Shown in pieces: positions 25,056-56,195 of a stretch of DNA of 64,000 nucleotides. This DNA is from Pseudomonadota bacterium. Its GTDB lineage: Bacteria > Desulfobacterota > Binatia > Binatales > Binataceae. A program made the translations under genes and the position numbers. Location: the NCBI GenBank assembly GCA_021324455.1, contig JAJPJA010000017.1, positions 27,273-91,272 of the forward strand. Direction: 5' to 3'. Each line of letters begins with the position of its first letter. Within the stretch, counting starts at the first letter, position 1. Below the pieces are notes generated by a model. That model was not told where the DNA came from and did not search any database. It saw nothing but the letters and a program-made list of their open reading frames with translations.

Positions 25056-27299
25056 TTAGAAAATCGGCGAAGCCGGCAGGGGTTGATTCAATTCCTCCAC
25101 CCGAAGATCTGGCGTGCGGGAGATGGACGGGTCGCGCCCGGAGGAGGCGGAAAGACCAGTCCGCCAGCCGCAGTCTTCGGCCGCTTCGCGCAAGCCGACC
25201 AGGCATCCGACGGCGTACGCCAGCAATGCTCCGTTGGTGAAAGCAAACGCCGCGTGCAGGTAAAGACCTGAAAACAGATCGATAACGCCGCGCCCAATAC
25301 AGTAAGTCAAAATCGCAAATTCCGCCATGACATAAAATCGCGGCGCTGCGGTTCGTCCTTCCACCTTCGGCGTCCGTCCGAAAGCACTGCGGCGTCCGGT
25401 GCAGGCCTGATGCAGGGACTTGAAAACCCCGCCCAAATTCACCGGTATCAGCAAAAGGTTCAGCGCGTATACGCGCGGCAGGTCGTACCACGAATAGCCG
25501 CTGGCGACCAGATCGCGCCCGTAAAGCGCGAAATACGGTATCGCGGTCAGCGGCAGCCACCATCCCCGCATGCTGCGATCGAACGGATGCAGTATGAGGA
25601 TCAGCATCCCCAGGCTCACGCCGAACAGCGACGTCAGGTAATGCAGGCGCAGAAATCCCTCGGCCAGCTTTTGCACGCGTCCGCCGCCTTCCATCAAATA
25701 GCGAAGCAGCTTGGGCAAAATCAGCAGACCGCCGTTGGCCCAGCGGCGGCGCTGGATTATCAGCGCGCCGAAGTCGGGCGGAGTGGCGCTGTACGCCAGC
25801 CGCTCCGGGTAATTGTACAGCAGCCAGCCGCGCAGAATCAGGTCGATGCTCGATTCCGTATCCTCGATCACGGTGCGGTCCTGGATATACTTCGCGACCG
25901 GTCTGCCGTCCTCGTCTTCGACCACCCGGATATCGTCGAGCGCGGCGCGGCGCAGCAGCGCGTTGGCCCCTACCCAGTAGGTTGCGCGCAGCCAGGTATA
26001 GCCCTGATGCATGATGTGCTGCACGTCGGTGGTGGCGCCCGCCACCCGCTCGAGCATCCGCGGGGTTCCCGGCACGGCGCTGTACGGCGTCTGCACCACG
26101 GCGACGCGGCGGTTGCCCGGGCGCTCCATCACATTTATCAGCCGCAGGGCGTAGTCGCTGAGCAGCAGGCTGTCGGCGTCCAGGGTGATGAGATAATCGG
26201 CGGCCGGAAAGCTGAGCTCCGCTTGCTCTGCGTTGCAGCGCTCAAGGTGAACCCCGTCGGCCCGCGCGCTGGTGCGGAAATGTCCGCCCATCAGCTCGAT
26301 ATAGCTGTTGAGATTCATCGCCTTGTTGGACGCGCGCGACAGATTGGCAAACTGTTTGCGCTCGAAGCTGGAAATCTCAACCGCGAACAAAGCTGCCAGG
26401 CGCCGGTACTCGCGATCGATCTGGGCGGACGACAGCGGCGCCGCGCCCGCCCGCCCATGGCGCAGCAGGCTGGCGGCGCGCTCTCGATGCGCCCGTGCGG
26501 GAGCGGAGATAATCCACTCCAGGAAGAAATCGTCGGTATGGTCGCGCGGATCCAAATCCGAGGCGAGATCCTCAATCGATTGCGCGGCCCTGAGGTAGAG
26601 CCGGGCGAGGGTTTTCGCTTCGCGCGCCGCATCGATAACCCCGCGGCGCCGCCGTTCTGCGTATGCATGCGCCGCCCAGGCAAGCTGACGTGCCGGCGCG
26701 CGCAAAAGCTCCGCAATTTTGCCCGGCAGCGCACGCATCCGCGCCAACTGCTCCGCGTCGGCGCCGCTGGCCGGATGGGGCGGGTCGTCGATCAGCAGCA
26801 CCACGCGCCGCGCCGGATACTCCATCAACGCTGCCGAAATCAGCGTCTGACGAACCACCCGTTCCTCTTCCTTGTAAGAGGGCACGAGCAGCGCGACCGC
26901 CGGCGGTTGCTCGCGGTCGTAAATCGATTCGATTTCGGCGCGCGCGGCCGCTTTATGGCTGGCTTGACGCTTCCAATGGCCCAAACGCGAGAAATGGTAA
27001 ACCAGATTGCCGTAAATGATGAAGTAGACGATCAGGATGAAGCAAATCTGCTCCAAGATTGGGCCCAGATGGCCGGCGCGCAGGCGTTCGGCCAGCACCG
27101 ACTGAACATCCAGCGACAGCATCAGATAGGCGCCGAACGTCGCTATCAGTCCGACCAGCGTGTAGGCAACCTCGCGGTGGGCCCCGCTCCGGGCGCCGTC
27201 TGTTTGTGTGTTTGGGGAAAGATTTTGTGCCGTTATGCGCCGGCTTGGCGGATTTTCGTCTTCACCCGAATCCGCGGGCATGCTCTGGGAGGAATTCAT
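25056..27299 (-). CDS. Processive GT2 glycosyltransferase (cellulose synthase-like), no PilZ domain
   Basis: LIDD, KAMNLN, DADS, QTP, VIED, QRRRW, FGRTPK; TMs at both ends. Confidence 0.9.
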   Translation of the reverse strand: MNSSQSMPADSGEDENPPSRRITAQNLSPNTQTDGARSGAHREVAYTLVGLIATFGAYLMLSLDVQSVLAERLRAGHLGPILEQICFILIVYFIIYGNLVYHFSRLGHWKRQASHKAAARAEIESIYDREQPPAVALLVPSYKEEERVVRQTLISAALMEYPARRVVLLIDDPPHPASGADAEQLARMRALPGKIAELLRAPARQLAWAAHAYAERRRRGVIDAAREAKTLARLYLRAAQSIEDLASDLDPRDHTDDFFLEWIISAPARAHRERAASLLRHGRAGAAPLSSAQIDREYRRLAALFAVEISSFERKQFANLSRASNKAMNLNSYIELMGGHFRTSARADGVHLERCNAEQAELSFPAADYLITLDADSLLLSDYALRLINVMERPGNRRVAVVQTPYSAVPGTPRMLERVAGATTDVQHIMHQGYTWLRATYWVGANALLRRAALDDIRVVEDEDGRPVAKYIQDRTVIEDTESSIDLILRGWLLYNYPERLAYSATPPDFGALIIQRRRWANGGLLILPKLLRYLMEGGGRVQKLAEGFLRLHYLTSLFGVSLGMLILILHPFDRSMRGWWLPLTAIPYFALYGRDLVASGYSWYDLPRVYALNLLLIPVNLGGVFKSLHQACTGRRSAFGRTPKVEGRTAAPRFYVMAEFAILTYCIGRGVIDLFSGLYLHAAFAFTNGALLAYAVGCLVGLREAAEDCGWRTGLSASSGRDPSISRTPDLRVEELNQPLPASPIF

Positions 27300-27570: not shown

Positions 27571-29331
27571 TCAGTCGATCTTGCGCTTTCCGTAGTACGG
27601 CAGCATGGTGCCTTCGGACGGCTTTGGCTCCGTCGTAGCCGGCTTTTTGCCTGCAAACGCGCTGTACATCGCCAGCGTCCCCGGCTCGATAACCTCGGCG
27701 TCCGTGATCACGTTCAGGCACGCCACCCGGCCGCATCCCAGCGCCCGCTTCATTGCCGGGGCGATATCGGTGGCGCGCTCGACCAACTCGCCATAAGCGC
27801 CAAGCCCGGCCGCCGCCCGCTCATAGTTAACCATGCCCAATTCGGTCGCGACGTGCCGGCCCTTGCCCCAGGCCAGTTCCTGCCCATGCTTCGACATGCC
27901 CCACTGACGGTCATTGTTGATCACGACCGTGATGGGGAGATTATGTTTGACCGCGGTGTGGAACTCGGAGAAGTTGAGCCCCGCCGATCCGTCGCCCAAA
28001 ATACAGAACACCTGGCGATGTGGATGCGCCACCTTGGCTGCCAGTGCGAACGGCAGCCCCGTCCCCAGACATCCGAGGTAGCCGTGAGTCATAAAGCTGC
28101 CCGGCACACGCGCCTTCCACGCATTGCCCATCCACGCCGCGGTCTCGCCGCCGTCAGCCACCACGATCGCGTCGGGGTCGAGCGCCTGCGCGATTTCGCG
28201 CGTCAGCCGCACCGGATGGATCGGGCCGTCGTGGTTCTTGAGCGCGTCGTCCCAGCGATGGAACTGCGCGGTGCGAATCGCCGTCAGCCGCTCGATCCAT
28301 TCCTGATGCGGATCGAACCTGTTGTCGCCCACAGCCGCTATTGCCTGACGCAGGAATTCGCCGCAATCCGACACGATGCCTAATTCGATATTGCGCGCGC
28401 GGCCAATCTCTTCGGGTTCGATATCGACCTGGATGACGCGCGCGTCGGGCGGGATAACGCTGTTGCGGCCGCCGGTAAAAAGCCCGATCCGTGTGCCCAA
28501 CAGGATCACCAGGTCGGCGCTGGGCGCCTGCCGGCGTTGATGCCCAGAGGGATGAATCGCGCCGAAGCCGCCGAAGCATAGCGGATGGTCTTCGGGGATC
28601 GATCCGCGCGCCTTGTGATTGGCCATCACCGGCGTATGCGTCAGCTCGGCGAATTGCGTCAGTTCTTTGGCCGCCTGCGCGAACCATACGCCGCCGCCGG
28701 CCAGAATCGCGGGACGCGCCGCCTCCTTCAGCCATTGCAGCGCCTGCGCCAGCGCCTCGCGGCTGGGTCCGGCCGGTGCTTTGGGCCGGTAATGCTCGGG
28801 AAAGCGGACGTTATCTTCTTCGACCCTGGCGAACAGCACGTCGATCGGGATTTCGAGAAACACCGGACCGGGTCGCCCCGAGACCGCATGCCGAAACGCC
28901 ATCGCCGCGAACTCCGCGATGCGCGCCGGCTGCGTCACCGAATAGGCCCACTTCGTAATCGGCCGCATCAGCCCCATCTGATCGATTCCGCCCTGCAGCG
29001 GCAGCAATTCGTCGTCGAGCAGCGGGCTGCGGCCCCCAATCAGGAGCATCGGGATACAATCCATGTACGCGTTGGCGACGCCGGTCACCGCGTCGGTCAC
29101 GCCAGGCCCCGCCGTGACCATCGCGACACCGGGGCGTCCGGTCGTGCGCGCCCATCCGTCGGCCATATGCGCCGCCGCCTGCTCGTGGCGGGTGTCGATT
29201 ACGCGCAGGTCATGCTTGAGGCAGGCGTCGAAGACGGCATCCAGATGCCCGCCGTGCAGCGTGAAAATCTGGCTTACGCCTTCGCGTTCGAGCGCCCGTA
29301 CCAGCATCTCACCGCCATGTATTTTTGCCAT
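27571..29331 (-). CDS. ThDP-dependent enzyme, benzaldehyde lyase/2-hydroxyacyl-CoA lyase-like
   Basis: LHGGH, DTRHEQAA, HGYLGCLG, GDGS...NND ThDP motif, C-terminal PYY. Confidence 0.85.
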   Translation of the reverse strand: MAKIHGGEMLVRALEREGVSQIFTLHGGHLDAVFDACLKHDLRVIDTRHEQAAAHMADGWARTTGRPGVAMVTAGPGVTDAVTGVANAYMDCIPMLLIGGRSPLLDDELLPLQGGIDQMGLMRPITKWAYSVTQPARIAEFAAMAFRHAVSGRPGPVFLEIPIDVLFARVEEDNVRFPEHYRPKAPAGPSREALAQALQWLKEAARPAILAGGGVWFAQAAKELTQFAELTHTPVMANHKARGSIPEDHPLCFGGFGAIHPSGHQRRQAPSADLVILLGTRIGLFTGGRNSVIPPDARVIQVDIEPEEIGRARNIELGIVSDCGEFLRQAIAAVGDNRFDPHQEWIERLTAIRTAQFHRWDDALKNHDGPIHPVRLTREIAQALDPDAIVVADGGETAAWMGNAWKARVPGSFMTHGYLGCLGTGLPFALAAKVAHPHRQVFCILGDGSAGLNFSEFHTAVKHNLPITVVINNDRQWGMSKHGQELAWGKGRHVATELGMVNYERAAAGLGAYGELVERATDIAPAMKRALGCGRVACLNVITDAEVIEPGTLAMYSAFAGKKPATTEPKPSEGTMLPYYGKRKID

Positions 29332-29377
29332 CGGCCCGGCTCCCGCACTCAGGTAATCAACATCCAAATGAACCGGC

Positions 29378-30211
29378 TCAACCGCTGACGCGGTCGAACT
29401 CGGCATGCCATGATTCTTTGATCCAGACGTCGCCGTCGCAGTCGATCGTATGCGCGTTGATACATCGCTGCTCGGTGGACGCTTCCACCAGCATCTTGTC
29501 GCCGTCGAGATGAGTACAGTGAAAATCGGTGCGGGACGTGATGATTCCGGTGGGACCGGGGAATACACCCAGAATTTTCATGTGCAGCGGTGTGCTGCTT
29601 TTGGTCCGCAGCACGACGAAATTGTCGCCCGAGAACAGCACGTCGGTGTGCCCGTTCTCCACCCCGACGTTGGACACCACCCAGTCCGACACCACCGGAT
29701 ACTCCGCGGTGGTGGAAAACGTCACGTTGCCGTTCGGACCCGCGTTGTGGAAACACAGCATATAAGTGGAAGGGGATATTCCCTTTACGACCGGACCGCG
29801 GCCGAAAGTCCAGCTTTCGGGCTGAGTTACGGTGGCCTGCCAGCAGCCCTCGAAATTTTTCGGGAACAGCGATTTCGGTCCGCTGGGCGTCGGGCTCGCC
29901 GAGGACGCGGACGGAATTTCCAAGGCGTTGGATCCCGCAGGAATCGCGGCCAGCATCGTCGCCGACGCCGCGGGCGTCATCCGCAACTCCCTGTTGCTGC
30001 GCCATCGCGAGGACAACTGCGCGCCCAGGGTGCCTGAGGGATGCCGGTGCGGATGGTGCAAATGGCGGCCCTGGCGCACCATGAAGCCGAGCGTCGGCTC
30101 GGCGGTGGGCGCGGCCGGGTTGAAAGAAATGGGGATCCCTCCTCTGCGATAAGCCGCATAACCCAGGGCCGCTATGGCCGCAAAAACCAGCAGGAGCCGC
30201 AGATGCGCCAT
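29378..30211 (-). CDS. Hypothetical membrane-anchored or secreted beta-rich protein
   Basis: N-terminal hydrophobic segment, low-complexity linker, then a Cys-containing beta-strand domain starting FEGCWQ. Confidence 0.6.
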   Translation of the reverse strand: MAHLRLLLVFAAIAALGYAAYRRGGIPISFNPAAPTAEPTLGFMVRQGRHLHHPHRHPSGTLGAQLSSRWRSNRELRMTPAASATMLAAIPAGSNALEIPSASSASPTPSGPKSLFPKNFEGCWQATVTQPESWTFGRGPVVKGISPSTYMLCFHNAGPNGNVTFSTTAEYPVVSDWVVSNVGVENGHTDVLFSGDNFVVLRTKSSTPLHMKILGVFPGPTGIITSRTDFHCTHLDGDKMLVEASTEQRCINAHTIDCDGDVWIKESWHAEFDRVSG

Positions 30212-30356
30212 AAAGGTCGCTTAGCATGAGATGGCCCGCAAGCTCCAGAATCGCCGTCCGGGCGCAAGCCCAGCCGGTGCAATCAGCTTGACAGACGGGG
30301 ACATCGCATGCTTTGGCCTATCCGTGCCATTTTTCAGCCTCAGGTCCTTGCGGCGA

Positions 30357-32777
30357 ATGCTTCAGCTTGCGGCCCTTGGTGGACTCGTTACGATCGGCAG
30401 CGCCGCGCTCGCCGCCGAAGGTTTGGGCGGATTCGTCGGGCATCTGGAGGCGATGCAGCCGCGGGTGCGGCAGGGTGTCAGCGATCCGCGCGCCGCCAGC
30501 GAGGCGATCAACGAGCTGGACGCCGACGAGGGTACTTTTGCCCACTACACCACGGTTCCCAACGCCAGCCGCGCCGAGTTGCTGGAAGCGTACGGCCTGC
30601 TCGAGCGGATGCTCGGTCTGATGTACGACACCTATCACAGGCAACATGACCAATGCCTGATCGCAATCGGCAACGGCAACATGAACTGCGATTACAACCT
30701 GCTCGAGCAGCTTGAGCTGAGGGCGCTGTATCCGCTGTCATGGCTGCGATTTCACGGTTCCATCCTGTTCAATTCGCCGCAAGTGCGCAGGCGGATGCTC
30801 AAACAGGCCGCGGCCGGGTTTACCCAGAGCGCGCTGGTGATTATCTCGCCCGAACTGATTCGCGAAAACCTGCTGGGCCGCGGCTACTGCGAGCGCGACC
30901 TGGGCCAGTTCGACCGTTCCCACTACGCCAAAGCGATCGCCGATTTCAGGGAAGTGATGAAGGCCGGCGCCGGCACGGCACAGTATCGCGCCGCTCAGCA
31001 GGGACTTGCCACCACCTACGCCGCGATGGGCGAGGTCGGCAAAGCGGCCGCGCTCAGCGCGCGTTTGGCACAAACCACCACCGGCGCCCAGATGCAGGGG
31101 GCGCAGATGTTCCGCTTACAGGAACTGCTTCAGGCCGAGGCCGAGTCCGCCGACCCCGCGCGCCGCGCCCAGTTGCATCGCGAGATCGTGGAACTGCTGC
31201 GCGGCTATTACGGCAATGGCAAGCAATGGCCGATGGCGCTGGCCGCTGTGGTACATGACGCGGCCAATCCCGAGGCTGAATTCGGCGCCGCCCAAGATCC
31301 GTTCGAGTCGTATCTGCTGGCCGAAGTGCTGGCCTCGACGCATCATCAGATGGCGGCGGCGAAATATTATCTGGCCGCCGCCCGCAGCGGTCAGTATCCC
31401 CAGGGTTACAAGTACGCGATCGACATCTATTACGGGCAGGGCCGTCTGGATCTAGTCGATCAGCCGCTGGAAGAGCTGGCCAGGCAGCGCCGCAATCCGA
31501 ATGCGCAGTGGGCCGCGTATATGCGCTTCAAAATCGCGCGCACCCGCTGGGAGCGCTCAGGCATGCGCGACGCCCATCTCAACGCCGCATGGATTGCGCG
31601 GGCGCATGACTACCTGGATCGTTACCCGCGCGGCAAATATGCCTACGAACCGCGGTTCCGGCTGGCGGAATTGCTGCAGGATCAGGGCAAATACGCCGAC
31701 GCCGCCGCGCAGTACGACCAGGTAAGCGGCGATCCCTTCTATACTTTCGCCGCCGGGTTCAAGGCCGCCGAATGCCGCTACCTGGAGTTGGCCGCGTTGG
31801 CCAACAAGGCCGCCAAACCCGGCCCGAAAACCGCCCAGCTCAGGGGCGCCCTGACGGCCAAGGCTATCGCCGGACTTCAGCAGACCGTGGCCGTCGGGCC
31901 GGAAATCGAAAAGCGCACGTCCGCCGAGCGTCAGTTCGTACATACCGCCCGCGCACGCGCGACCTACATGCTGGCCACGATGCTGGAGGCGCAGCCGTCT
32001 AAGGACTACGCGCGCATCGCCAACCTGCTCGACGGCTTTGAGAGCGCCTATCCGCAGATGGCGGCCAATTTCGACGACGTCACGCGCTGGCGCCTGGAAG
32101 CGTTGGAGCGCAGCGGCCAATACACGCAGGCGCAGGCGGAAATCGCGCGCCTGCTTGCCCCCGGCCGCCGCCCCGCACCCGCCAACGATTACATCAAGGC
32201 TTTGGGCCTCGACTTATGGAAGCAGGCCAGGCTCAGAGCGGATCGGGGCGACCAGGCCGGCGCGCTGGCCGACGCGCGGCTGACCGCGCAGCTCTATCAA
32301 TATTTCGAGCAGCAGGTGGCGGCCGGAAAAATGAATCCGAAAAGCCTCACCGGCACGCTTTCAATTTTGGGTCAGGCGTATGTGATGATGGACGACAGCG
32401 AGCGCGCCCGCGCCATCTTCGAGCAGGTGGTAAAGGCCGCGCCCTCCTCGCCCGACGCCAACGCGGGACTGGCGCGGCTGGCGCAGGCGCGCCGGGACTA
32501 CCGTCAGGCCTCCGACCTCTGGACCCGGGTGGAAGCCGAAGCCGCCGAATCTGACGATCTTTGGTACGAAGCGCGCTATAACCTTGCGGTGATTTACGCC
32601 GCCGACGGCAACCTCAAGGCCGCCTGCGGCAAGCTGGCGCAGACCCGCAGCGAACATCCGAGCCTGGGCAGCCCGCGGATGAAGACGCGATGGGACGGGC
32701 TGCAGCGCAAGCTGTGTCTGCCGCAGTCAGTGATTGGCGGGAACGGCGCGCCGGGGAAGGAAACGGCCGCGCGTTGA
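30357..32777 (+). CDS. Large exported TPR/alpha-solenoid protein
   Basis: Signal peptide from ATG 30357 (ORF opens at 30231); TPR-like repeats such as YLDRYPRGKY..EPRFRLAELL..QGKY..AA and EARYNLA. Confidence 0.8.
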   Translation: MLQLAALGGLVTIGSAALAAEGLGGFVGHLEAMQPRVRQGVSDPRAASEAINELDADEGTFAHYTTVPNASRAELLEAYGLLERMLGLMYDTYHRQHDQCLIAIGNGNMNCDYNLLEQLELRALYPLSWLRFHGSILFNSPQVRRRMLKQAAAGFTQSALVIISPELIRENLLGRGYCERDLGQFDRSHYAKAIADFREVMKAGAGTAQYRAAQQGLATTYAAMGEVGKAAALSARLAQTTTGAQMQGAQMFRLQELLQAEAESADPARRAQLHREIVELLRGYYGNGKQWPMALAAVVHDAANPEAEFGAAQDPFESYLLAEVLASTHHQMAAAKYYLAAARSGQYPQGYKYAIDIYYGQGRLDLVDQPLEELARQRRNPNAQWAAYMRFKIARTRWERSGMRDAHLNAAWIARAHDYLDRYPRGKYAYEPRFRLAELLQDQGKYADAAAQYDQVSGDPFYTFAAGFKAAECRYLELAALANKAAKPGPKTAQLRGALTAKAIAGLQQTVAVGPEIEKRTSAERQFVHTARARATYMLATMLEAQPSKDYARIANLLDGFESAYPQMAANFDDVTRWRLEALERSGQYTQAQAEIARLLAPGRRPAPANDYIKALGLDLWKQARLRADRGDQAGALADARLTAQLYQYFEQQVAAGKMNPKSLTGTLSILGQAYVMMDDSERARAIFEQVVKAAPSSPDANAGLARLAQARRDYRQASDLWTRVEAEAAESDDLWYEARYNLAVIYAADGNLKAACGKLAQTRSEHPSLGSPRMKTRWDGLQRKLCLPQSVIGGNGAPGKETAAR

Positions 32778-32868
32778 GATAGCCTCAAGCCGCCCCAAAT
32801 TGGGCGGCGGGATACAATTCGGATTGCGGGCGCCGGCGCGCCCGCATCGGCAAGGAGAGTCGGCAGCA

Positions 32869-33510
32869 ATGCAACAGCAGTTCGGCATCATCGCGATGAT
32901 TCAGCAGGGGTACTACGCCACCTACCCGCTGATCGCCATCTCGATCATCTGTATCGCGGTCATTTTGGAACGCCTGTGGGCGTTGGGCGGACTGCGCGTA
33001 CGCACCACCCGCACGGCGGCGCAGTTGGTGGATCCGCTGCGCCGGGGCAACTTCGACGAGGCGCTCAAGAAGACCGAAAGCCGCAAGCGCCCGTTCGAGC
33101 GGGTTTTCTACGCGCTGATTTCCGCCGCGCGCAGCAACGACCGCGAAAAACTGATGGAGATCGACGAGGAGCAGCGCTTCGAGGAACTGCTCGAACTCAA
33201 GCGCTACGTCTGGGTGCTGGCGACTTCGGGCGCCTCCGCACCGTTCATCGGCCTGTTCGGCACCGTGGTCGGAATTCTGACCGCGTTCCAGTCGATGGCG
33301 GTGATGGGGACGGGCGGTTTCTCGGTAGTCGCGGCGGGCATTTCCGAAGCGCTGATCTCGACCGCGCTGGGACTGGCGGTCGCGATCATCGCGGTGATCT
33401 TTTACAACTATTTCTCCGTGCGCATCGACAATCTCAACGCCGTGATGCACGTCAGTTCCAATCATCTGATCAACGCGGCGTTGGAAGGGCGGCAGACCAG
33501 TGGCGGTTAG
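32869..33510 (+). CDS. MotA/TolQ/ExbB proton-channel protein
   Basis: SAPFIGLFGTVVGI, AGISEALISTALGL; AAGGAG SD. Confidence 0.95.
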   Translation: MQQQFGIIAMIQQGYYATYPLIAISIICIAVILERLWALGGLRVRTTRTAAQLVDPLRRGNFDEALKKTESRKRPFERVFYALISAARSNDREKLMEIDEEQRFEELLELKRYVWVLATSGASAPFIGLFGTVVGILTAFQSMAVMGTGGFSVVAAGISEALISTALGLAVAIIAVIFYNYFSVRIDNLNAVMHVSSNHLINAALEGRQTSGG

Positions 33511-33934
33511 CGGTCCGTCTTCGGGCGGCGGCGTTTTCTGGCAGATCAATATCACCCCGCTGACCGATATCTTTTTGGTGTTGCTGATCATCTTTATGAT
33601 CACCGCGTCGATCTCGGTGGAGTCGGCGGCGCACGTCGGCCTGCCGCTGGCGGAAAACACCTCGCCGGAAAAACGCGGCGTGGTCGTGACCTACACCGCC
33701 GAGCATGAAATCTTCGTCAACTCCAAGGATATTCCCGCGTCCGAACTACAAGGGGCCCTGCGCGACGCGCTGGCGCGGATCGATCCCAAAGTCGTAATCT
33801 TTCAGGGCGATCGCAAGGTCCTGCTGGGCGACATGGTGAAGATCCTCAAGGTGGCCAAGGCCGCCGGCGCCGACCAGATCGCGATCGCGGCCAAGCGGGC
33901 CTCAGTGGACGAGATCGAACGCTCGCTGCGCTGA
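33500..33934 (+). CDS. ExbD/TolR family protein (copy 1)
   Basis: INITPLTDIFLVLLIIFM with the conserved TM Asp; IFQGD. Confidence 0.95.
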   Translation: MAVSGPSSGGGVFWQINITPLTDIFLVLLIIFMITASISVESAAHVGLPLAENTSPEKRGVVVTYTAEHEIFVNSKDIPASELQGALRDALARIDPKVVIFQGDRKVLLGDMVKILKVAKAAGADQIAIAAKRASVDEIERSLR

Positions 33935-33967
33935 GGCGGCGGCACAATCGAAACAGGGAAGACCGCG

Positions 33968-34423
33968 ATGGCAATTCCCAGCGGCAACGACAACGGCCTG
34001 TTCGGCGAAATCAACATTACGCCGCTGACCGACATCTTCCTCGTCCTGCTCATCATCTTCATGGTCGGCGCGGCGGTGGCGATCGAATCGGCGGCGCACG
34101 TGGGCCTGCCGCAGGCCAAGGCGGCGCCGGTCAGCCAGCCGCCGCAGGAGGTGATTGTGGAACTGACGGCCGAGCGCCGCATCCTGGTCGACCAGCACGA
34201 AATCGGCCTCAATGATTTGGAACCGGTGCTGCGCAAGGCGATGGAAAAATCGCACGACAAGGTCGTCATCTTCAAAGGCGACCCGAAGATTATTTTGGGC
34301 GATATGGTGATAATCCTGGACATCGCCAAGCGCGCCGGAGCGCAGCAACTGGGCGTCGCGGTCGCACAGGCGGAGGAGGCCGGTGCGGCGGCCGATGTGC
34401 CCGTATCGGCGCCGGCGCCATAA
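33968..34423 (+). CDS. ExbD/TolR family protein (copy 2)
   Basis: EINITPLTDIFLVLLIIFM; IFKGD. Confidence 0.95.
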   Translation: MAIPSGNDNGLFGEINITPLTDIFLVLLIIFMVGAAVAIESAAHVGLPQAKAAPVSQPPQEVIVELTAERRILVDQHEIGLNDLEPVLRKAMEKSHDKVVIFKGDPKIILGDMVIILDIAKRAGAQQLGVAVAQAEEAGAAADVPVSAPAP

Positions 34424-34478
34424 TACGCAGCGGCACTGTTGTCCCGAAAGTCGGAAATAGCGGTGACAGGCGGAAATT

Positions 34479-35717
34479 ATGCTGGTGAGCAGACTTCATA
34501 ATCTACCCGCGAGCGTGCTGGTTGCGTTGGCGGTTTCGATCGTCGCGCTCGCGGTGATTTTGGGCCTGGTTTTTCGCGCGCTGCGCCGTCCGGTCGCTTT
34601 CGAACGCGGACGCGACGCCTGGCGCAGCTTCAAGGAAGGACTCATCTTTGTGGCCGGGCCGTTCCCGATTTCGATCGCGATTCACGTCGCCGTGCTGCTG
34701 TTCCTGATTCATGAAGTCCGGCAGGTGGCGGCGCCCAAATACATCAACATACATCTGGAATCGGGCGGCGGCGGCAGCGGCGGGGCGGCGCCCGACGTCA
34801 AGCTGCCGCCGATGCCCGACGTCGCCACCCCGGACACCGCTCTGACCGGCCTTTCCTTCCAGGTGCCGAAAATCGCACCCGCGAGAACTACCACGACCAC
34901 CTATACGAACGAATACGTGCGCGCCGTCAATCGCGGTGAGTACGGAACCGGATTTGGCGGCGGCTTCGGCGGCGGCTACGGCACCGGATACGGACGCGGC
35001 ATCGGCAGCGGCTTCGGCGGCTTTATCGGCGAGCTGCGCAAAAAAGGGCTCGACGTCGTGCTGGTGATCGACGGCACCGGCTCGATGGAATTCGTGATGG
35101 ACGAAGTCAAAGCCAAGATGGAGCAACTGGTGCTGGCGATTCATCGGCTGGTGCCGGTGGCGCGCATCGGGATCGTCCAGTTCGGCGGACGCGGCGAATC
35201 GGTCCAGATTCAACCGTTCACCACCTCCTCGGAGCAGCTCGAGACTTTCCTGTCGCACATCAAGGCGCAGAACGGCAGCTATGACTGGCGCGAAGATACG
35301 CTGACCGCGGTCAGGACCGCGGTCGATCAGATGCAATGGCGGCCCGACGCCAAGAAGGTCATCGTGCTGGTCGGCGATACGCCGCCGTGGGACGAAGACG
35401 TCGCTCCCATCATGAACCTGATCACCAAATTCCGCGGCGAGAACGGCACCTTCAACACGGTCGATGTTACGGTGGAAGAGCACGAGCTGTTCGAACGCGT
35501 GGTGCTCAACGCCAGGACCGCGTCGCCGCTGCCGGATTTTTACCTGCTGACGCAGCACGCCTACCAGGAGATGGCGAAAGTCGGGGGCGGCGAATGGCGC
35601 AGCCTGACCAAGGACAGCGCCATCAACCAGCAGGTGGTGATGCTGGCGTTCGGCCGCCAATGGCAATCGCAAATCGCCGCTTTCCAGACCGACGTTGCCA
35701 GCACCGCGGGACACTAG
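34479..35717 (+). CDS. Inner-membrane-anchored VWA-domain protein with TonB/TolA-like S-x3-H TM helix
   Basis: Two TMs (the second contains SIAIH), Pro/Thr/Gly-rich linker, VWA domain with LDVVLVIDGTGSM ... VLVGDTPP. Confidence 0.85.
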   Translation: MLVSRLHNLPASVLVALAVSIVALAVILGLVFRALRRPVAFERGRDAWRSFKEGLIFVAGPFPISIAIHVAVLLFLIHEVRQVAAPKYINIHLESGGGGSGGAAPDVKLPPMPDVATPDTALTGLSFQVPKIAPARTTTTTYTNEYVRAVNRGEYGTGFGGGFGGGYGTGYGRGIGSGFGGFIGELRKKGLDVVLVIDGTGSMEFVMDEVKAKMEQLVLAIHRLVPVARIGIVQFGGRGESVQIQPFTTSSEQLETFLSHIKAQNGSYDWREDTLTAVRTAVDQMQWRPDAKKVIVLVGDTPPWDEDVAPIMNLITKFRGENGTFNTVDVTVEEHELFERVVLNARTASPLPDFYLLTQHAYQEMAKVGGGEWRSLTKDSAINQQVVMLAFGRQWQSQIAAFQTDVASTAGH

Positions 35718-35829: not shown

Positions 35830-36615
35830 TCACCATTGCTCTTCGCGCAGCTGCGCGAACGGGCGAGCGGCGCTGTAGAAGGTCAGCGAGACCAGGATTC
35901 CCAGCGGGATGAACATCGCCGGCAGTTCGAACTTCAAGCCCGCCATCGCTCCGCAGTACGCACCCGCCAAATAGCAGACGAACAACGATCCGGTCAGCGC
36001 CATGTGCAGGACGTCGCGCTGGTGGGGGGCGGTCCGCGCGACCTTGCGCCATCGCGATCGGAATCGGCCGCGCGTCCGCCGTCTGACCCAGAAGATGAAA
36101 CTGGCGGCGGCTTCGCCGAATTTCACCAGCGAGCCGGTCACGAAAGTGGTATAAACGTTAAGGCCGCCGATTTTCCGCACGGTCACGTTCTGCAGGCCCA
36201 TCGAAACCGTCAACAGCGCCACCATCAGGTAGTATTTACCCGCGGGCTGCGGCGGAACCGCCGGCGCGAAATTGATACCCGACGCGGCGGCGATAAATCC
36301 GCCGATCAGGATCGATTCAAGCAGCAAAGTTGAAGCAACCGGCCAGCGAAACCTGCGCACCTGCGCCTCGAACAGTATCGCGCCGATAATCAGTCCGCCG
36401 ACGAAAGTGAGTATCGGCCAGGCGTGGCGCAGAAATCCGTACCAGTGAAGATCGGCCATATGACGCGCCGCCGCCACCGTGTTGCCGCTCATGTGCGCCA
36501 CGTACACGCCGTATATAAAGATGTACCCGAATACGTCGATATAGCCGGCGACGGCGGTCAGCAGCAGCGCGACTGGCGTTTTCTGCAGCGCCCCGAAGGG
36601 ACCGCGCCGCCGCAT
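35830..36615 (-). CDS. YoaK/DUF1275 family membrane protein
   Basis: AGYIDVFG, AHMSGNT, MGLQN, TTFVTG. Confidence 0.9.
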   Translation of the reverse strand: MRRRGPFGALQKTPVALLLTAVAGYIDVFGYIFIYGVYVAHMSGNTVAAARHMADLHWYGFLRHAWPILTFVGGLIIGAILFEAQVRRFRWPVASTLLLESILIGGFIAAASGINFAPAVPPQPAGKYYLMVALLTVSMGLQNVTVRKIGGLNVYTTFVTGSLVKFGEAAASFIFWVRRRTRGRFRSRWRKVARTAPHQRDVLHMALTGSLFVCYLAGAYCGAMAGLKFELPAMFIPLGILVSLTFYSAARPFAQLREEQW

Positions 36616-36635
36616 CGAATCGCCCTGGAGGCGGC

Positions 36636-37427
36636 CTAGCGCCGCCGTCCGCGCAGCCATCGATACCACGAATCCAGACCGGCGCCGGTCCTGACCGACG
36701 TCTGCAGCAGCCCGGCCCCCGGATTGACCCTGCGCGCGTATTGGATGCAGAGCGGGAGATCGAACTCCAGATGCGGCAGCAGGTCCGACTTGCTCAGAAC
36801 GATCGCGTCGGCGGCGCGGAACATGTGCGGATACTTGAGCGGCTTGTCCTCGCCCTCGGTCACCGACATGATCACGACGCGCGCGCCTTCACCCAAATCG
36901 AACAGCGCGGGGCACACCAGGTTGCCGACGTTTTCAATCATCAGCACCGAGCGCCGGGGCGGATCCAGTTCATGCAGCGCGCGATCGAGCATCGCGGCGT
37001 CCAGATGGCATCCGGAGCCGGTGTTGATCTGAACCACGCGCGATCCGGTTTTGCGGATACGCTCGGCGTCGCGCAGCGTTGCCTGGTCGCCTTCGATGAC
37101 GGAAATTTCCAGCTCTCCGCGAAGATCGGCGATGGTGCGCTCCAGCAGCGCGGTCTTGCCCGCGCCCGGCGCGCTCATCAGGTTTACGGCCAGAATCTCG
37201 CGCCCCTCAAACCAGCCCCGGTTGCGCTCTGCAATCAGGTTGTTGCGGGCGAGGATATCCTGCTCCAGTTTGACTACGCGGCGCTCTCCGTCCTGGTGCG
37301 GATGGCGATGCGCGTGATCGTGATCGTCATGGCCATGGGAGCGGGACGAGCCGTGATCCGGCGCGCGATCGGCGGGATTGGTCACCACTGTTTCGGCTTT
37401 TTGGGAGCATCCGCAAGTGCTACACAT
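36636..37427 (-). CDS. hypB: Hydrogenase nickel incorporation GTPase HypB
   Basis: MCSTCGC, His-rich stretch, PGAGKT, GCHLDA, ENVGNLVCPA, EDKPLKYP. Confidence 0.97.
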   Translation of the reverse strand: MCSTCGCSQKAETVVTNPADRAPDHGSSRSHGHDDHDHAHRHPHQDGERRVVKLEQDILARNNLIAERNRGWFEGREILAVNLMSAPGAGKTALLERTIADLRGELEISVIEGDQATLRDAERIRKTGSRVVQINTGSGCHLDAAMLDRALHELDPPRRSVLMIENVGNLVCPALFDLGEGARVVIMSVTEGEDKPLKYPHMFRAADAIVLSKSDLLPHLEFDLPLCIQYARRVNPGAGLLQTSVRTGAGLDSWYRWLRGRRR

Positions 37428-37755
37428 CGGCGATCTCCACCTCGCGAATTTTGAGTTCCTGTCCGGCGACAAGTTCGAGGTCCGCGCTGCCGCATCCGCA
37501 CCGCGCGAGCAAATCGTCAACGTTGAAGCGAGCCCCGCAGCGGCGGCATCGCGCGCGCCCGGGCGTTTCAATCACCTCGAGCCGGGCCCCTTCCAGCGCG
37601 GTGCCGGCGGCGCAGATGTCGAAGCAAAAACGCACCGAGTCGCAGACCACGCCCGAAAGGCGTCCGATTTCAAGCGCCACGCGCGTCACCCTGGCGCCGC
37701 CGATGCGCTCGCCGATCTGATTGACCACGCTTTGCGTTATCGCCAGTTCATGCAT
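37420..37755 (-). CDS. hypA: Hydrogenase maturation nickel metallochaperone HypA
   Basis: MHELAI N-terminus, CRRC...CGCGS. Confidence 0.96.
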   Translation of the reverse strand: MHELAITQSVVNQIGERIGGARVTRVALEIGRLSGVVCDSVRFCFDICAAGTALEGARLEVIETPGRARCRRCGARFNVDDLLARCGCGSADLELVAGQELKIREVEIADV

Positions 37756-37800
37756 TCTCAATCCAATCAGATCGCCTCATCGCGCATTGACAAAAGGGCC

Positions 37801-40134
37801 CTAACGGTCCGTGCTGTCGCGGGCGGCGGCGATTGCGGCCTGGCCGAACGCGATACCGCCGTCATTGGCCGGCACCCGGCGATGCGTCAATACGCGGAAA
37901 CCCAGACTTTCCAAACTTTGATGGACGCGCTCCAGCAGCCAGAGGTTCTGAAACACGCCTCCGCTGAGCGCGACCAGGTCGAGGCCATGCTGTTGGCGTA
38001 TGAAGCCGCAAACCTTGACGATGGTGTCGGCCATGCCGTTGTGAAAGCGCGCGGCGACGATCTCGCGCGGTGTGCCGGCGCGCAGGTCGTCGGCGGCGGC
38101 GCGGACCAAATCCGCGCCGCAGATTCGCATCGCGCCGCAACCGTTGACGCGGGCCGGATACGATCCGCGTTCGGCGGCGTCCGCCATCTGTTCCAGCTCC
38201 ACCGCCGCCTGTCCTTCGTAATTGACCCGATCGCGCAGGCCCACGATTGCGGCGGCGGCGTCGAACAGGCGTCCGGCGCTGGAAGTGAGCGGCGAGTTCA
38301 CCCCGGCGCGCATCGCGGCGGCCACCGCATCCCATCGGCTGCGGTTGCGCCGGAACACGTCCAGATCGGCGGGCGCTTCATCGGCGTAAGCCGCGGCCAG
38401 ATAAGCCAGCGCCATCCGCCACGGCTCCTTGATGGCGGCGGCGCCCCCCGGCATGGGCACCGGCTCGAAACATCCGGCGCGGCGGAAGGAGCATAAATCG
38501 GCGATGAGAAACTCGCCGCCCCACATGGTCGCGTCGGCGCCGTAGCCGAGACCGTCAAACGCGGCGCCGATTGCCGGACCGTATTCGCCGTTGTCGGCCA
38601 GACACGCGGCGATGTGCGCATGATGATGCTGCACCGCCATCAGTTCGATCCCGCGCAGCCCCAGCGCGTACCTGGTTGACAGATATTCGGGATGGAGATC
38701 GTGGACCGCGATTTTCGGATCGATCTCGAACAGCCGGCGGAAGTGCTCAATCCCTTCAATGAACGAGAGCAGGCTGGGATAGTTTTCAAGGTCGCCGATG
38801 TGAGACGAGAGAAAGGCGCTGGAGCCGCGTACGAGGCAGAAGGTGCTCTTCAACTCGGCGCCGCAGCTCAGCAGCGGACGGCGCGCCGGGAGCGGCAATT
38901 TCAGCGGCGCCGGAGCGTAGCCGCGCGATCGCCGGACCGTCACCTCGCGTCCGCCCGCCGCGCGCACCACGGAATCGTCGGTGCGGATATGAATCGGACG
39001 ATCGTGGGTTAGAAACCAGTCCGCGATACTCCCCAGCCGCTCCATCGCATCGCCGTCGCGATACGCGATCGGCTCCTCGGAGACATTGCCGCTGGTCAGC
39101 ACGATGGGCTCGCCGATCGCCTCGCATAGCAGGTGATGCAGCGGTGTGTAAGGCAGCATCAATCCGACGAACCGGTTGCCGGGCGCCACGGCGGAAGCCA
39201 GCGGCGCCTGCGGATTGCGCCGGAGCAGTACGATCGGACGCCGCGCGCTCAGCAGCAGCCGCTCCTCGGCTTCATCAATCAGGGCCAGAACCCGCGCCTG
39301 ATCGAGGTTCGACACCATCAGGGCGAAGGGCTTGTCTTCGCGATGCTTGCGCGCGCGCAGCTTGGCCACCGCCGATTCATTGGCCGCCGCGGCCGCCAGA
39401 TGGTAGCCGCCCAATCCTTTGACGGCGACGATCTCGCCGCACGCCAGCAGCCGCGCCGCGGCTTCGATCGGGTCTGCGGTTTTTTTCGTCCCCGCGCCCC
39501 GCTCGTCGATCGCAAGAGAGCGAGGAGATGCGACCAGCCGCAGCCGCGGGCCGCAATCCGGACAACAGATCGGCTGCGCATGAAAGCGGCGATCGGCGGG
39601 ATCGTGATATTCCCTGGCACACAGCGCGCACATCGCAAATCCGGCCATCGTGGTGCATTGCCGGTCGTAGGGAATATCGCGGACGATGGTAAAGCGCGGA
39701 CCGCAGTTGGTGCAGTTGGTGAATGGATAGCGATAGCGCCGGTTGGTCGGATCGAAGATCTCGCGCAGGCAATCGCCGCAGGCCGCCACGTCGGGCGCGA
39801 TCAAGGTCCGATGCGGCCCATTGGAACGGCTGCCCGCGATGATGAATCCAGTGTCGCCGCGCGGTGGTATTACGGTGGCTGACGCGCGCTCGACGCACGC
39901 CACAATGGGCGCGTCGCTGCGCAGACGGGTCTGGAACTCGGCCAGCGCCGGCGCCGCTCCTTCCACTTCGATGATCACGCCCTGCTCGTCGTTGGCGACG
40001 TAGCCCGCCAGACCAAGCCGGACGGCCAGAGCATAGATGAAGGGCCGAAACCCGACCCCTTGCACGGTCCCTTCGACCCGAATCAGGTTGCGGATCGGGA
40101 CTGTTTCGCGTTCATTTGGAGCATCCTGAATCAT
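37801..40134 (-). CDS. hypF: Carbamoyltransferase HypF
   Basis: GTVQGVGFRPF, CTNCGPRF, RRFHAQP, HDLHP, QHHHAH, PANDGG. Confidence 0.97.
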   Translation of the reverse strand: MIQDAPNERETVPIRNLIRVEGTVQGVGFRPFIYALAVRLGLAGYVANDEQGVIIEVEGAAPALAEFQTRLRSDAPIVACVERASATVIPPRGDTGFIIAGSRSNGPHRTLIAPDVAACGDCLREIFDPTNRRYRYPFTNCTNCGPRFTIVRDIPYDRQCTTMAGFAMCALCAREYHDPADRRFHAQPICCPDCGPRLRLVASPRSLAIDERGAGTKKTADPIEAAARLLACGEIVAVKGLGGYHLAAAAANESAVAKLRARKHREDKPFALMVSNLDQARVLALIDEAEERLLLSARRPIVLLRRNPQAPLASAVAPGNRFVGLMLPYTPLHHLLCEAIGEPIVLTSGNVSEEPIAYRDGDAMERLGSIADWFLTHDRPIHIRTDDSVVRAAGGREVTVRRSRGYAPAPLKLPLPARRPLLSCGAELKSTFCLVRGSSAFLSSHIGDLENYPSLLSFIEGIEHFRRLFEIDPKIAVHDLHPEYLSTRYALGLRGIELMAVQHHHAHIAACLADNGEYGPAIGAAFDGLGYGADATMWGGEFLIADLCSFRRAGCFEPVPMPGGAAAIKEPWRMALAYLAAAYADEAPADLDVFRRNRSRWDAVAAAMRAGVNSPLTSSAGRLFDAAAAIVGLRDRVNYEGQAAVELEQMADAAERGSYPARVNGCGAMRICGADLVRAAADDLRAGTPREIVAARFHNGMADTIVKVCGFIRQQHGLDLVALSGGVFQNLWLLERVHQSLESLGFRVLTHRRVPANDGGIAFGQAAIAAARDSTDR

Positions 40135-41500: not shown

Positions 41501-42871
41501 TCAGTTAGCTTCAGGCTCGCCCAGTTTGCGATACAGAGTCTTGCGGTCGATTCCCAGCACCGCGGCCGCTTCGCTCTTGTTGCCGCCCACCGAGGCCAGG
41601 ACGGCGCGGGCGTATTCGCGTTCGAGCTGATCGATGGTCAGGCGGCGGTTGACTGCGTCTTCGACCATCACGGTCTGCACCTCCCCACCCGCCACCTTGG
41701 CCGGCAGGTCGGCGCGCGTGATGCGGTCGTTGCGGCACAGAATGACGGCGCGCGAGATGGCGTTCTGCAGTTCGCGGATATTGCCGGGCCACTGGTAATG
41801 AGTCAGGCAGGCCACCGCGTCGGGGTCGATCTCGGGAATCGAGCGGCCGGCCTCGGCGCTGGCGCGGGCCAGAAAATGCCGGACCAGCGGCATGATGTCC
41901 TCGGTTCTCTCGCGCAGCGGCGGCAACACCAGGGTAACCGTGGCCAGGCGGTAATATAGATCGAGGCGGAATTTCCCCGCGCTGATTGACTCTTCCAAAT
42001 CGGAGTTGGTCGCCGAAACGATCCTGACATCGACCGGGCTCTCTTCGGTTGCGCCCACCGGCCGCACCCGCTTGTCTTCTATCACCCGCAGCAGCTTGGC
42101 CTGCAGCAACAACGGCATCTCGCCGACCTCGTCCAGAAACAGGGTGCCGCCGCGGGCGGCTTGGAACAGACCGGTCTTGCTCTGGCGCGCGTCGGTGAAC
42201 GCACCCTTGACATGGCCGAACAGTTCGCTTTCGAGCAGATTGTCGGGAATGGCGGCGCAGTTGACCGGAATGAACGGCCCCTGCTGACGGCGGCTGCGGA
42301 AATGCAGGGCGCGCGCGATCAATTCCTTGCCGGTGCCGCTTTCGCCGGCGAGCAGCACGCTGGCGGCGCTATCGGCAATCTGCCCGACGATTTCCAGCAC
42401 CTCGCTCATCTTGCGGCTGGCCGCGACGATGTTCTCCAAACCATAGCTGTGGGCCAGTTCGCCGCGCAGCCGTTTGATCTCCTGGCGCAGCTTGCGGTCT
42501 TCCAGCGCGCGCGACACCACCAGCAGCAGCTCGTCGTTGGAAAACGGCTTGGTTATATAGTCGAAGGCGCCCAGCTTCATTGACTCGACCGCGGTCTGAA
42601 TCGATCCGAATGCGGTGATGATGACCACCGGCAGGTTAGGCTGCAGACGCTTGAGCTCGGCGTGCAGCTGATGTCCGCTCATGCCGATCATACGCAAATC
42701 GGAAATCACCAGATCGGGATGCTCGCGGCGCACCAGATTGAGAGCCTCGCTGCCGGAATTGGCGGACAGCGCCCGATAGCCCGCCGAACCCAGAATTTCC
42801 GCCAAAAAGTTGGCCATTTCGCGGTCGTCGTCAACGACCACGATCGTGCTGCGTTCGTCGTCCATGTTCAT
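41501..42871 (-). CDS. Sigma54-dependent response regulator (NtrC/ZraR-like)
   Basis: REC domain, GESGTGKE, GAFTDA, FLDE, WPGNIREL, Fis-type HTH. Confidence 0.97.
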   Translation of the reverse strand: MNMDDERSTIVVVDDDREMANFLAEILGSAGYRALSANSGSEALNLVRREHPDLVISDLRMIGMSGHQLHAELKRLQPNLPVVIITAFGSIQTAVESMKLGAFDYITKPFSNDELLLVVSRALEDRKLRQEIKRLRGELAHSYGLENIVAASRKMSEVLEIVGQIADSAASVLLAGESGTGKELIARALHFRSRRQQGPFIPVNCAAIPDNLLESELFGHVKGAFTDARQSKTGLFQAARGGTLFLDEVGEMPLLLQAKLLRVIEDKRVRPVGATEESPVDVRIVSATNSDLEESISAGKFRLDLYYRLATVTLVLPPLRERTEDIMPLVRHFLARASAEAGRSIPEIDPDAVACLTHYQWPGNIRELQNAISRAVILCRNDRITRADLPAKVAGGEVQTVMVEDAVNRRLTIDQLEREYARAVLASVGGNKSEAAAVLGIDRKTLYRKLGEPEAN

Positions 42872-44340: not shown

Positions 44341-44409
44341 TCTAGCCCTAAAGTGGAACCAATGGGATACTGCTGCGGGTTTCAAAAAAGCTGCTCCAAT
44401 TGGTGACCT

Positions 44410-44425
44410 AGCCAACTACATGCCA
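44410..44425 (-). promoter_or_regulatory. Putative sigma54 promoter for the HK-RR operon
   Basis: Minus strand TGGCATGTAGTTGGCT with GG-N10-GC spacing. Confidence 0.55.
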
Positions 44426-56080: not shown

Positions 56081-56151
56081 CGTTTGCGCCGGCCTCAAAT
56101 TGAGCATTGGACGGCTGATGACCGTATCGATTCGTGAAAGCTTCTAAATCG

Positions 56152-56190
56152 CCTCTCCTCCGAGTGCGGACAGGGAGAGGATCAGGGTGA
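56152..56190 (+). repeat. REP-like palindromic element
   Basis: CCTCTCC...GGAGAGG hairpin followed by ATCAGGGTGA; only one clear copy in the window. Confidence 0.35.
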
Positions 56191-56195
56191 CCGTG

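Follow-up and report, generated by a model that had tools for sequence, protein, structure and literature searches.

A five-gene motor cluster in a Binataceae genome

We analyzed a 64,000-nucleotide stretch of DNA (hereafter the window) from a genome of the Binataceae, a family of the Binatia, in which five adjacent genes encode a tetratricopeptide repeat (TPR) protein, an ExbB/TolQ-type motor protein, two ExbD/TolR paralogues, and a membrane protein that ends in a VWA (von Willebrand factor A) domain. The window corresponds to C131:27273-91272, where C131 is a contig of an assembly that is 93.6% complete and comprises 5.28 Mb in 161 contigs. The original prediction, made from the DNA letters, described these genes as a co-directional cluster, and this arrangement was confirmed on the forward strand:

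30357..32777, + strand: exported TPR/alpha-solenoid gene, 806 aa (open reading frame [ORF] and public gene call P0270, start 30357)
32869..33510, + strand: ExbB/TolQ-type motor gene, 213 aa from first ATG (Pfam MotA_ExbB)
33500..33934, + strand: ExbD1 (ExbD/TolR paralogue 1), 144 aa, GTG start (Pfam ExbD)
33968..34423, + strand: ExbD2 (ExbD/TolR paralogue 2), 151 aa (Pfam ExbD)
34479..35717, + strand: gene for VWA-tipped TonB-like membrane protein, 412 aa (Pfam VWA_2 and VWA; AlphaFold2 [AF2] model)

For the reasons developed below, we consider it probable that this cluster is a working motor-transducer system of a class already in print, the vWA force transducers (PMC12204202). The TPR ORF opens at 30231, ahead of the start of the public gene call, and the ExbB ORF opens at 32734, ahead of its first ATG. 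Reading from the TPR gene to the VWA gene, the spacings are 91 nt, an 11-nt overlap (ExbB/ExbD1), 33 nt, and 55 nt. Pfam assigns MotA_ExbB to ExbB (1.2e-30; 106 bits, cut-off 22.9), ExbD to both ExbD1 (5.9e-23) and ExbD2 (8.6e-23), and VWA_2 (4e-11) together with VWA (5.8e-11) to the 412-aa protein. The TPR_19 match in the TPR protein (1.8e-7; 31.8 bits, cut-off 25) is modest next to the motor and VWA scores.

Predicted architecture of the VWA protein

The AF2 model of the VWA protein, which was computed from a 43-row alignment and has a mean predicted local distance difference test (pLDDT) score of 78, contains helices at residues 11-36, 45-59, and 61-83. Together with a 43-row alignment whose rows were selected for carrying S-x3-H (alignment A1), this model delimits the following features:

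34671..34685, + strand: S65-x3-H69, putative motor-binding motif in transmembrane (TM) helix 2 (61-83), from alignment
34728..35000, + strand: disordered Gly-rich linker, predicted periplasmic, residues 84-174, from pLDDT
35013..35708, + strand: VWA domain, residues 179-410, AF2 pLDDT mostly >90
35070-35084, + strand: D198-x-T200-x-S202 metal-site motif, from alignment A1

Helix 61-83 reads P-I-S65-I-A-I-H69-V-A-V-L-L-F-L76. When the N-termini of E. coli TonB, E. coli TolA, the window protein, and three relatives were aligned, the Ser and His columns were invariant, with S65 and H69 falling on S16 and H20 of TonB and on their TolA counterparts, and with L76 falling on TonB L27. S65 and H69 are also invariant in alignment A1, whose rows were picked by this motif. 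Neither TM helix of the protein (11-36 and 61-83) holds an Asp. The loop between these helices is rich in Arg and Lys, which would fit an N-out, loop-in, C-out topology and would give helix 2 the orientation it has in TonB.

The segment that joins the TM helix to the VWA domain (residues 84-178) is ~95 residues long, which agrees with the published length of ~100 residues for domain II of such transducers, and its pLDDT falls below 50 at residues 84-103 and 118-174. It opens with a Y-I-N-I-H-L stretch whose alternating hydrophobic pattern is common to the A1 relatives, and this stretch is a possible equivalent of the “motor box” of PMC12204202. In the VWA domain, D198 of the metal-site motif is invariant in alignment A1, with T200 and S202 conserved to 90% or more. 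No Pfam match to TonB_C or to the TolA C-terminal domain was found in the 412-aa protein at E<=0.01, and because it lacks TonB_C we do not place it in the TonB/TolA family. The original prediction had cast the VWA protein as the transducer, and the features predicted in silico (S-x3-H-x6-L within a TM helix, disorder in the linker, and, at the C-terminus, a VWA fold whose metal-site motif is conserved) support the view that it has what is expected of a force transducer.

The best solved matches of the VWA domain in a Foldseek search are BatB (3ibs_A, 1.8e-10), 4jdu (a Bacteroides fragilis aerotolerance-related membrane protein), and integrin I-domains. BatA/BatB are membrane-anchored like the window protein, and Bat operons pair membrane VWA proteins with TPR proteins. 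The VWA protein might thus not be a transducer, but part of a Bat-like periplasmic VWA/TPR assembly that merely shares an operon with ExbBD, in which case the motor would use a canonical TonB encoded elsewhere, such as an orphan TonB_C gene on contig C95. We regard this explanation as improbable. Only VWA-type families were matched by Pfam, so the N-terminal domain of BatA is missing, and there is no MoxR or DUF58 gene among the 10 neighboring genes scanned. The cluster is not a Bat operon, and Bat operons are not known to include ExbBD.

Motor subunits and their phylogeny

Residues P126, T133, E161, and T166 of the window ExbB (numbered from a query that began one codon ahead of the ATG) are invariant relative to E. 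coli ExbB and TolQ, as anticipated for an intact ExbB/TolQ protein. Likewise, alignment with E. coli ExbD and TolR revealed that the pore Asp is invariant in both ExbD paralogues, which are 54% identical to each other:

33566-33568, + strand: codon of pore Asp23 in ExbD1
34031-34033, + strand: codon of pore Asp22 in ExbD2

The NCBIfam scores of ExbB are 114.2 for tolQ (TIGR02796; cut-off 221) and 85.1 for exbB (TIGR02797; cut-off 206.2), and ExbB and both ExbDs fall below every NCBIfam equivalog cut-off for tolQ, exbB, tolR, and exbD.

A 56-row ExbB phylogeny, which was computed with IQ-TREE and in which long branches were flagged, places the VWA-linked ExbBs of Binatia in one clade (support 99/97). 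Within this clade, the ExbBs of Binataceae, including that of the window, form a subclade (100/100). E. coli ExbB and TolQ fall outside the Binatia clade, as does the TolQ of the same genome (contig C99). Other clades hold the VWA-linked ExbBs of Planctomycetota and the ones from Gamma- and Alphaproteobacteria. In this tree, a kind of check that had been proposed for the original prediction, the VWA-linked motors of different phyla do not group in one resolved clade. Both the scores below the tolQ and exbB cut-offs and the position of the window ExbB, apart from the two TonB_C-linked ExbBs of its genome, speak against a Bat-like assembly whose motor serves a canonical TonB.

A probable third motor in a genome with Ton and Tol-Pal loci

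The genome carries four MotA_ExbB matches, each on a different contig:

C99: Tol-Pal locus with TolQ, ExbD/TolR, a TolA-like protein matching TonB_C, and TolB_N
C141: Ton locus with ExbB, ExbD, TonB_C, and a receptor that has a Plug domain
C137: weak, MotA-like match
C131: the window cluster

The three TonB_C matches, one TolB_N match, and two Plug matches of the genome all lie off C131 (on C95, C99, C141, and C15). A profile search of contig C131 yielded no TonB_C, TolB_N, or Plug match, in agreement with the earlier statement that the window holds no tonB or tol gene and no gene for a TonB-dependent receptor. Given that the Tol-Pal and Ton loci are already present, the window motor is left without a TonB_C partner of its own, and the window cluster is the third motor of the genome, one that has no canonical transducer of its own. 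We therefore think it likely that the cluster is a self-contained third motor of the Ton/Tol type that runs on the proton motive force (PMF).

On contig C95, an ORF of 554 aa (55402-57063, - strand) encodes a signal peptide and a VWA domain with D-x-T-x-S and GGGGD, the same subfamily signature as in the window protein. In this protein, whose domains were read by eye, the TM segment is C-terminal, the tail is FHA-like, and the topology is the reverse of that of the transducer.

Distribution of the VWA family and its gene neighborhoods

A full HMMER search for the VWA family in 1.84 billion representatives gave 1975 matches at E<=1e-3, of which 58 reach E<=1e-30. Among the 150 matches listed, 62 are 330-480 aa long, and 54 of these 62 have S-x3-H within their first 150 residues. 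In 51 of the 54, the motif lies in a hydrophobic segment as judged by reading, and a strict filter keeps 41. In a sample of 121 Binatia genomes (including the unpublished genome G282), the VWA family is present in 89 at E<=1e-15. Longer relatives of 560-730 aa (among them P0188, P0209, P0218, P0239, P0251, and P0264) begin with an FHA domain, followed by the membrane segment and the VWA domain, in 7 of 10 cases scanned with Pfam, and a hydrophobic S-x3-H is found in 26 of 36 long relatives. Such proteins may be phospho-regulated transducers.

To describe gene order, we used three sets of loci. The first holds 78 loci from public species genomes, which were retrieved with a profile of non-Binatia members and a peptide pattern that excludes the D-G-T variant of the window; the second holds 30 loci around VWA matches in Binatia, and the third 11 loci around TPR orthologues. 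The Binataceae orthologues were reached by genome search and not by the peptide-pattern locus search. ExbB, ExbD, VWA, and TPR genes were mapped at E<=1e-5 on stop-to-stop ORFs with hidden Markov models (HMMs) iterated from the window proteins, a procedure that may miss divergent genes. With B for ExbB, D for ExbD, V for VWA, and T for TPR, and with twice-fetched loci removed, the gene orders are as follows:

Gammaproteobacteria, 32 loci: B-D(-D)-V-T in 28
Alphaproteobacteria, 4 loci: BDDVT in all 4
Planctomycetota, 25 loci: 9 TBDDV (the window order), 1 TBDV, 1 TBV, 1 BDDV
Planctomycetota, the 13 of 25 loci whose VWA match is clustered with no motor gene: 10 V, 2 VT, 1 VVV; many with other architectures
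Other Binatia families, 14 loci: 8 BDVT (single ExbD), 2 VBT, and 1 each of BDVTBD, BVTT, BVT, and VBDDT
Binataceae, 17 loci: 10 BDDV, 3 TBDDV (G340, G322, G320), 2 tandem VV, 2 lone V

The adjacency of these genes is not due to chance, since the same four families turn up side by side in Gammaproteobacteria, Alphaproteobacteria, Planctomycetota, and Binatia. The expectation that the VWA gene would be conserved beside exbB and exbD thus holds across phyla. The full five-gene order recurs in Planctomycetota (9 of 25 loci) but is narrow in Binataceae: apart from the window, 3 of the 17 loci fetched from this family show it, and the TPR gene is unlinked in 10 others. Homologous loci had also been expected to do without a canonical TonB, and no TonB_C match was found within ~69 kb of the cluster in any of five other carrier genomes checked.

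S-x3-H lies in a hydrophobic segment of 84 of 86 motor-adjacent VWA ORFs (80 of 81 when five twice-fetched loci are left out), compared with 15 of 29 VWA matches that are not beside a motor. The two exceptions are a single gene that was fetched twice, in which Ala replaces Ser. This difference is a further argument against a Bat-like assembly that shares an operon with ExbBD and nothing more.

Several loci carry additional genes. Four Binataceae loci (L091, L099, L100, and L102, in genomes G298, G239, G266, and G314) encode extra S-x3-H VWA paralogues, lone or in tandem, that have no motor genes within ~8 kb and recall the multiple TonBs that share one ExbBD. Some Binatia families have an additional, divergent ExbB-ExbD pair, which comes after the TPR gene (B-D-V-T-B-D in L039 and L113) or lies within 3-6 kb (L111 and L114); the second ExbBs of such loci form their own clade (support 100/99). 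A gene for a TonB-dependent receptor is located 1.7 kb upstream of the first ExbB in L113. Two candidates were rejected: an apparent VWA-TPR fusion in a myxococcotal locus (L033), whose two matches are in different frames, and an apparently conserved “family” beside the Binataceae clusters (component 20), which consists of Arg/His/Asp-rich antisense-frame ORFs.

The TPR protein

The AF2 model of the TPR protein is an all-alpha solenoid at residues 23-790 (pLDDT 84), and its first 20 residues (30357-30416) resemble a signal peptide by eye. The 26 orthologues compared share invariant Cys pairs (C100, C111, C757, and C787), a pattern that fits a periplasmic protein. A Foldseek search with this model returned just generic TPR scaffolds, with TM-scores of ~0.2. 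A complex prediction for the TPR protein (residues 23-788) with the VWA domain (182-411) received a score of 0.01 (mark 0.32) and counts neither for nor against binding.

Most Binataceae genera carry the TPR orthologue on another contig or >200 kb from the BDDV genes, at full length and with 43-57% identity. Across 41 Binataceae genomes, which include related and hence non-independent genomes as well as the unpublished genome G328, 30 carry both TPR and VWA, 8 carry neither, 3 carry TPR only, and 0 carry VWA only. All three TPR-only genomes are at most 86% complete. Because the TPR gene is linked to the cluster in other phyla and co-occurs with it in Binataceae, the TPR protein is a real component of the system. 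The earlier proposal that it belongs with the VWA protein and motor is therefore upheld, even where the genes are unlinked. This joint presence and absence of TPR and VWA across Binataceae is new relative to the main text of PMC12204202.

Flanking genes and sources of the cluster

On both sides, the cluster is flanked by unrelated genes on the opposite strand, as judged from Pfam matches for the 10 neighbors:

27571-29568, - strand: thiamine pyrophosphate (TPP) enzyme, upstream flank (Pfam)
29378-30211, - strand: divergently transcribed 277-aa ORF upstream; its start resembles a signal peptide, and Pfam returned no match
35830-36669, - strand: DUF1275 gene, downstream flank (Pfam)
36636-40134, - strand: CobW/HypB-like GTPase and HypF (hydrogenase maturation), downstream (Pfam)

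The 277-aa gene was considered as a member of the system and dropped, as it is conserved in only one genome of the same genus. Further out, Pfam identifies a 747-aa family-2 glycosyltransferase (25056-27299, - strand) and, at 41501-44415 (- strand), a sigma-54 response regulator together with a histidine kinase. The source records of near homologues of the VWA and TPR proteins read Candidatus Binataceae or Binatus. Ten sequencing runs listed as holding the cluster DNA are soil or mine metagenomes, and none of the runs listed for the cluster is recorded as RNA.

Comparison with known systems

The original prediction presented this cluster as a candidate new machine, a claim that does not hold. 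A 2025 study entitled [quoted passage not shown] (PMC12204202, Mol Biol Evol) describes, in its section 8, “vWA force transducers” that are encoded downstream of TPR-tolQ-tolR-tolR, and it thus reached the same architecture and the same transducer model independently. According to that section, the class occurs in Proteobacteria, Planctomycetes, Verrucomicrobia, Bacteroidetes, and Rhodothermaeota, and AlphaFold 3 models of relatives put the conserved TM His on the motor. Since the window has the defining features that were tested, we file its system as a new member of this class, from Binatia. The main text of PMC12204202 does not name Binatia (“binat” occurs 0 times), and by term count “vWA” is absent from the available text of a 2026 review of Ton/Tol motors (PMC12905483).

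Compared with the SHLS class as described in the text of PMC12204202, the window protein has the same plan (a TM helix with S/H/L, a disordered linker of ~100 residues, and a C-terminal vWA fold) and the same gene partners, in the order reported there for the PVC group. The TBDDV loci of Planctomycetota encode proteins homologous to the VWA protein of the window (E 1e-10 to 3e-27). Most Binatia versions differ from the PVC order by having a single ExbD and the order B-D-V-T. The published survey began from species that lack TolA and TonB, unlike the window genome with its ordinary Ton and Tol-Pal systems. A second, TPH-type vWA family described in PMC12204202 is also membrane-tethered beside a TolQ-like gene, but it has an ExbD-like transpore helix with an Asp and is encoded next to tolQ only. 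Because the window protein has S-x3-H and no TM Asp, and because two ExbD genes are present, it does not belong to this second family.

The likeness to the TonB-ExbB-ExbD and TolA-TolQ-TolR systems lies in the 5:2-type motor family with its conserved pore residues, in the S-x3-H-x6-L helix followed by a flexible region that would span the periplasm, and in the extra transducer paralogues mentioned above. The tip is different, because a VWA domain takes the place of TonB_C or the TolA C-terminal domain; target capture would therefore use a metal site rather than beta-strand addition. There is also no TonB-dependent receptor, TolB, or Pal gene near the window cluster.

The original prediction also drew an analogy with the gliding machinery of Myxococcus. 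Like the window cluster, the AglRQS motor combines a single TolQ-like subunit with two that are TolR-like. A VWA domain is likewise part of the AglRQS-Glt/CglB system, in which CglB, the adhesin for gliding, is both a VWA protein and an outer-membrane lipoprotein (PMC9946355, in the text available), and section 8 of PMC12204202 suggests a gliding role for vWA transducers. A surface-motility or adhesion motor of the Agl/Glt type nonetheless appears highly improbable to us. The window VWA protein has predicted TM helices and no lipobox, and so would be tethered to the inner membrane, unlike CglB. Most Binatia versions have a single ExbD, the neighbors in the window are metabolic and hydrogenase-maturation genes, and those in Gammaproteobacteria are transport-type genes. 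No Glt context was seen among the neighbors, although no search was aimed at Glt homologues, and nothing in these data points to gliding of the Agl kind.

Proposed mechanism

In the model that we favor, that of a vWA-class motor-transducer system, ExbB would form a pentameric stator ring, and the axle that conducts protons would consist of the two ExbD paralogues, probably paired in a heterodimer. The VWA protein would stand in for TonB or TolA, with TM helix 2 (S65, H69, and L76) binding the outside of the ExbB ring and the disordered, Gly-rich linker of ~95 residues crossing the periplasm. Its C-terminal VWA domain would then grip a target through the metal-ion site in place of the beta-strand addition of TonB_C, and rotation of the motor would pull on the target so held. 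The exported 806-aa TPR solenoid would be a scaffold in the periplasm, or else the ligand. Domain content, motifs, fold, conserved linkage, and co-occurrence come from the analyses above; we infer the docking of the TM helix, the ExbD heterodimer, the transmission of force, and the identity of the target.

Several observations weigh against this model. The fourth position of the SHLS motif is V80 rather than Ser, with L76 filling the third. An extra N-terminal TM helix (11-36) is present that is absent from TonB and from relatives outside Binataceae and that also sets the window protein apart from the SHLS class as published, and the topology proposed for the protein is read from one property, the loop's positive charge. 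The linker is rich in Gly where that of the published class is rich in Pro, and the AF2 monomer model has no beta-strand at the putative motor box. Because the VWA-linked ExbBs of different phyla form no single resolved clade, the tree does not demonstrate a single origin of the system. The orphan TonB_C gene on C95 could in principle use the window motor, and the Binataceae tallies draw in part on related genomes. Finally, PMC12204202, in its section 8, gives the function of the class as unknown and states that no deletion phenotype is on record for it.

A DUF1302/DUF1329 module as a candidate target

Gene neighborhoods in Gammaproteobacteria suggest a more specific version of the model, in which the VWA transducer and TPR protein energize a module of DUF1302, DUF1329, BNR, and RND/MMPL proteins. 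This module might act in growth on Tween 20 or fatty esters, as indicated by mutant fitness, or in the export of an envelope component, and in the window genome one motor would serve ~40 DUF1329 paralogues. It is the best candidate target that we have, although as a complete explanation it is rather unlikely.

Support comes mainly from gene order. In 26 of 32 gammaproteobacterial loci, B-D-D-V-T genes are contiguous on one strand with at least one module gene, and at least one module gene lies within the fetched ±7 kb in 30 of the 32. The typical order is MMPL-DUF1329-BNR-DUF1302-B-D-D-V-T-DUF1329 (L001-L031 and L048), and Pfam confirmed the MMPL/RND, DUF1329 (LolA-like), BNR/Ycf48-like, and DUF1302 assignments on locus L010. 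Three gammaproteobacterial loci read DUF1302-VWA-TPR with no motor genes between. This embedding in the module is new relative to the main text of PMC12204202, where the module is not mentioned. Planctomycetota and alphaproteobacterial clusters, by contrast, had no module genes detected by HMMs that were built from gammaproteobacterial sequences.

In Binatia, the association is looser. DUF1329 or MMPL genes lie beside the cluster in three loci (L112, L115, and L116). In the Binataceae genome G314, a VWA paralogue that is 49% identical to that of the window lies 2.4 kb upstream of BNR-MMPL-DUF1302-DUF1329, but an opposite-strand Kelch gene separates the two. The window genome has 43 DUF1329, one DUF1302, and 6 MMPL matches, yet no module gene occurs in the window or beside the cluster. 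DUF1329 is present in 30 of 30 VWA-positive genomes of the family, and the only 3 genomes without DUF1329 are also without VWA and TPR; on the other side, G317, G335, and G339 have 17-24 DUF1329 matches and no VWA or TPR, and DUF1302 tracks VWA weakly (21 of 30 VWA-positive and 5 of 11 VWA-negative genomes).

The DUF1329 matches of the window genome include C11:16003-17091, five matches on C77, and C140:66191-67192, and its lone DUF1302 match (C140:64502-65452) lies beside a DUF1329 gene. DUF1329 is very strongly expanded in this genus, with at least 36 matches in all three genomes compared with 0-24 in other Binataceae.

Published fitness data, as given in the accessible text of the reports, indicate that the four genes for DUF1302, DUF1329, BNR, and RND proteins are cofit (10.1101/072470) and that mutants of the module show phenotypes on Tween 20 and esters (10.1101/2020.07.04.188060). 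For DUF1302, the prediction is an outer-membrane barrel of 18 strands that binds DUF1329 (PMC13499233, in the text available). However, the accessible text of both fitness papers, which places the module in Pseudomonas and Shewanella, mentions no adjacent motor. In the library that we searched, no paper was found that ties the DUF1302/DUF1329 module to ExbBD or VWA proteins; DUF1302 and ExbB are each mentioned once in a single paper, whose title concerns the MetJ regulon, and DUF1329 and ExbD occur together in none.

Implications

If the module is indeed the target, SHLS-type VWA transducers and the TPR protein would be the missing energizer of a widespread, fitness-important module that has no known mechanism. 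The result would be a machine for PMF-driven transport of hydrophobic substrates or of lipids through the outer membrane, with the target gripped by a metal-ion bond that is integrin-like and possibly strengthened by force. Some of the marine gammaproteobacterial lineages that carry the joint cluster may be open to cultivation and hence to genetic tests.

To our knowledge, Ton and Tol are the only well-understood routes by which energy reaches the Gram-negative outer membrane. A third transducer type would widen the Ton/Tol principle, in that the motor-binding helix is kept and a metal-dependent adhesion domain is placed at the tip. In Binatia, an uncultured lineage of soil and mine environments, the vWA design is found alongside normal Ton and Tol-Pal loci, and the vWA system is therefore an addition to these systems and not a replacement for them.

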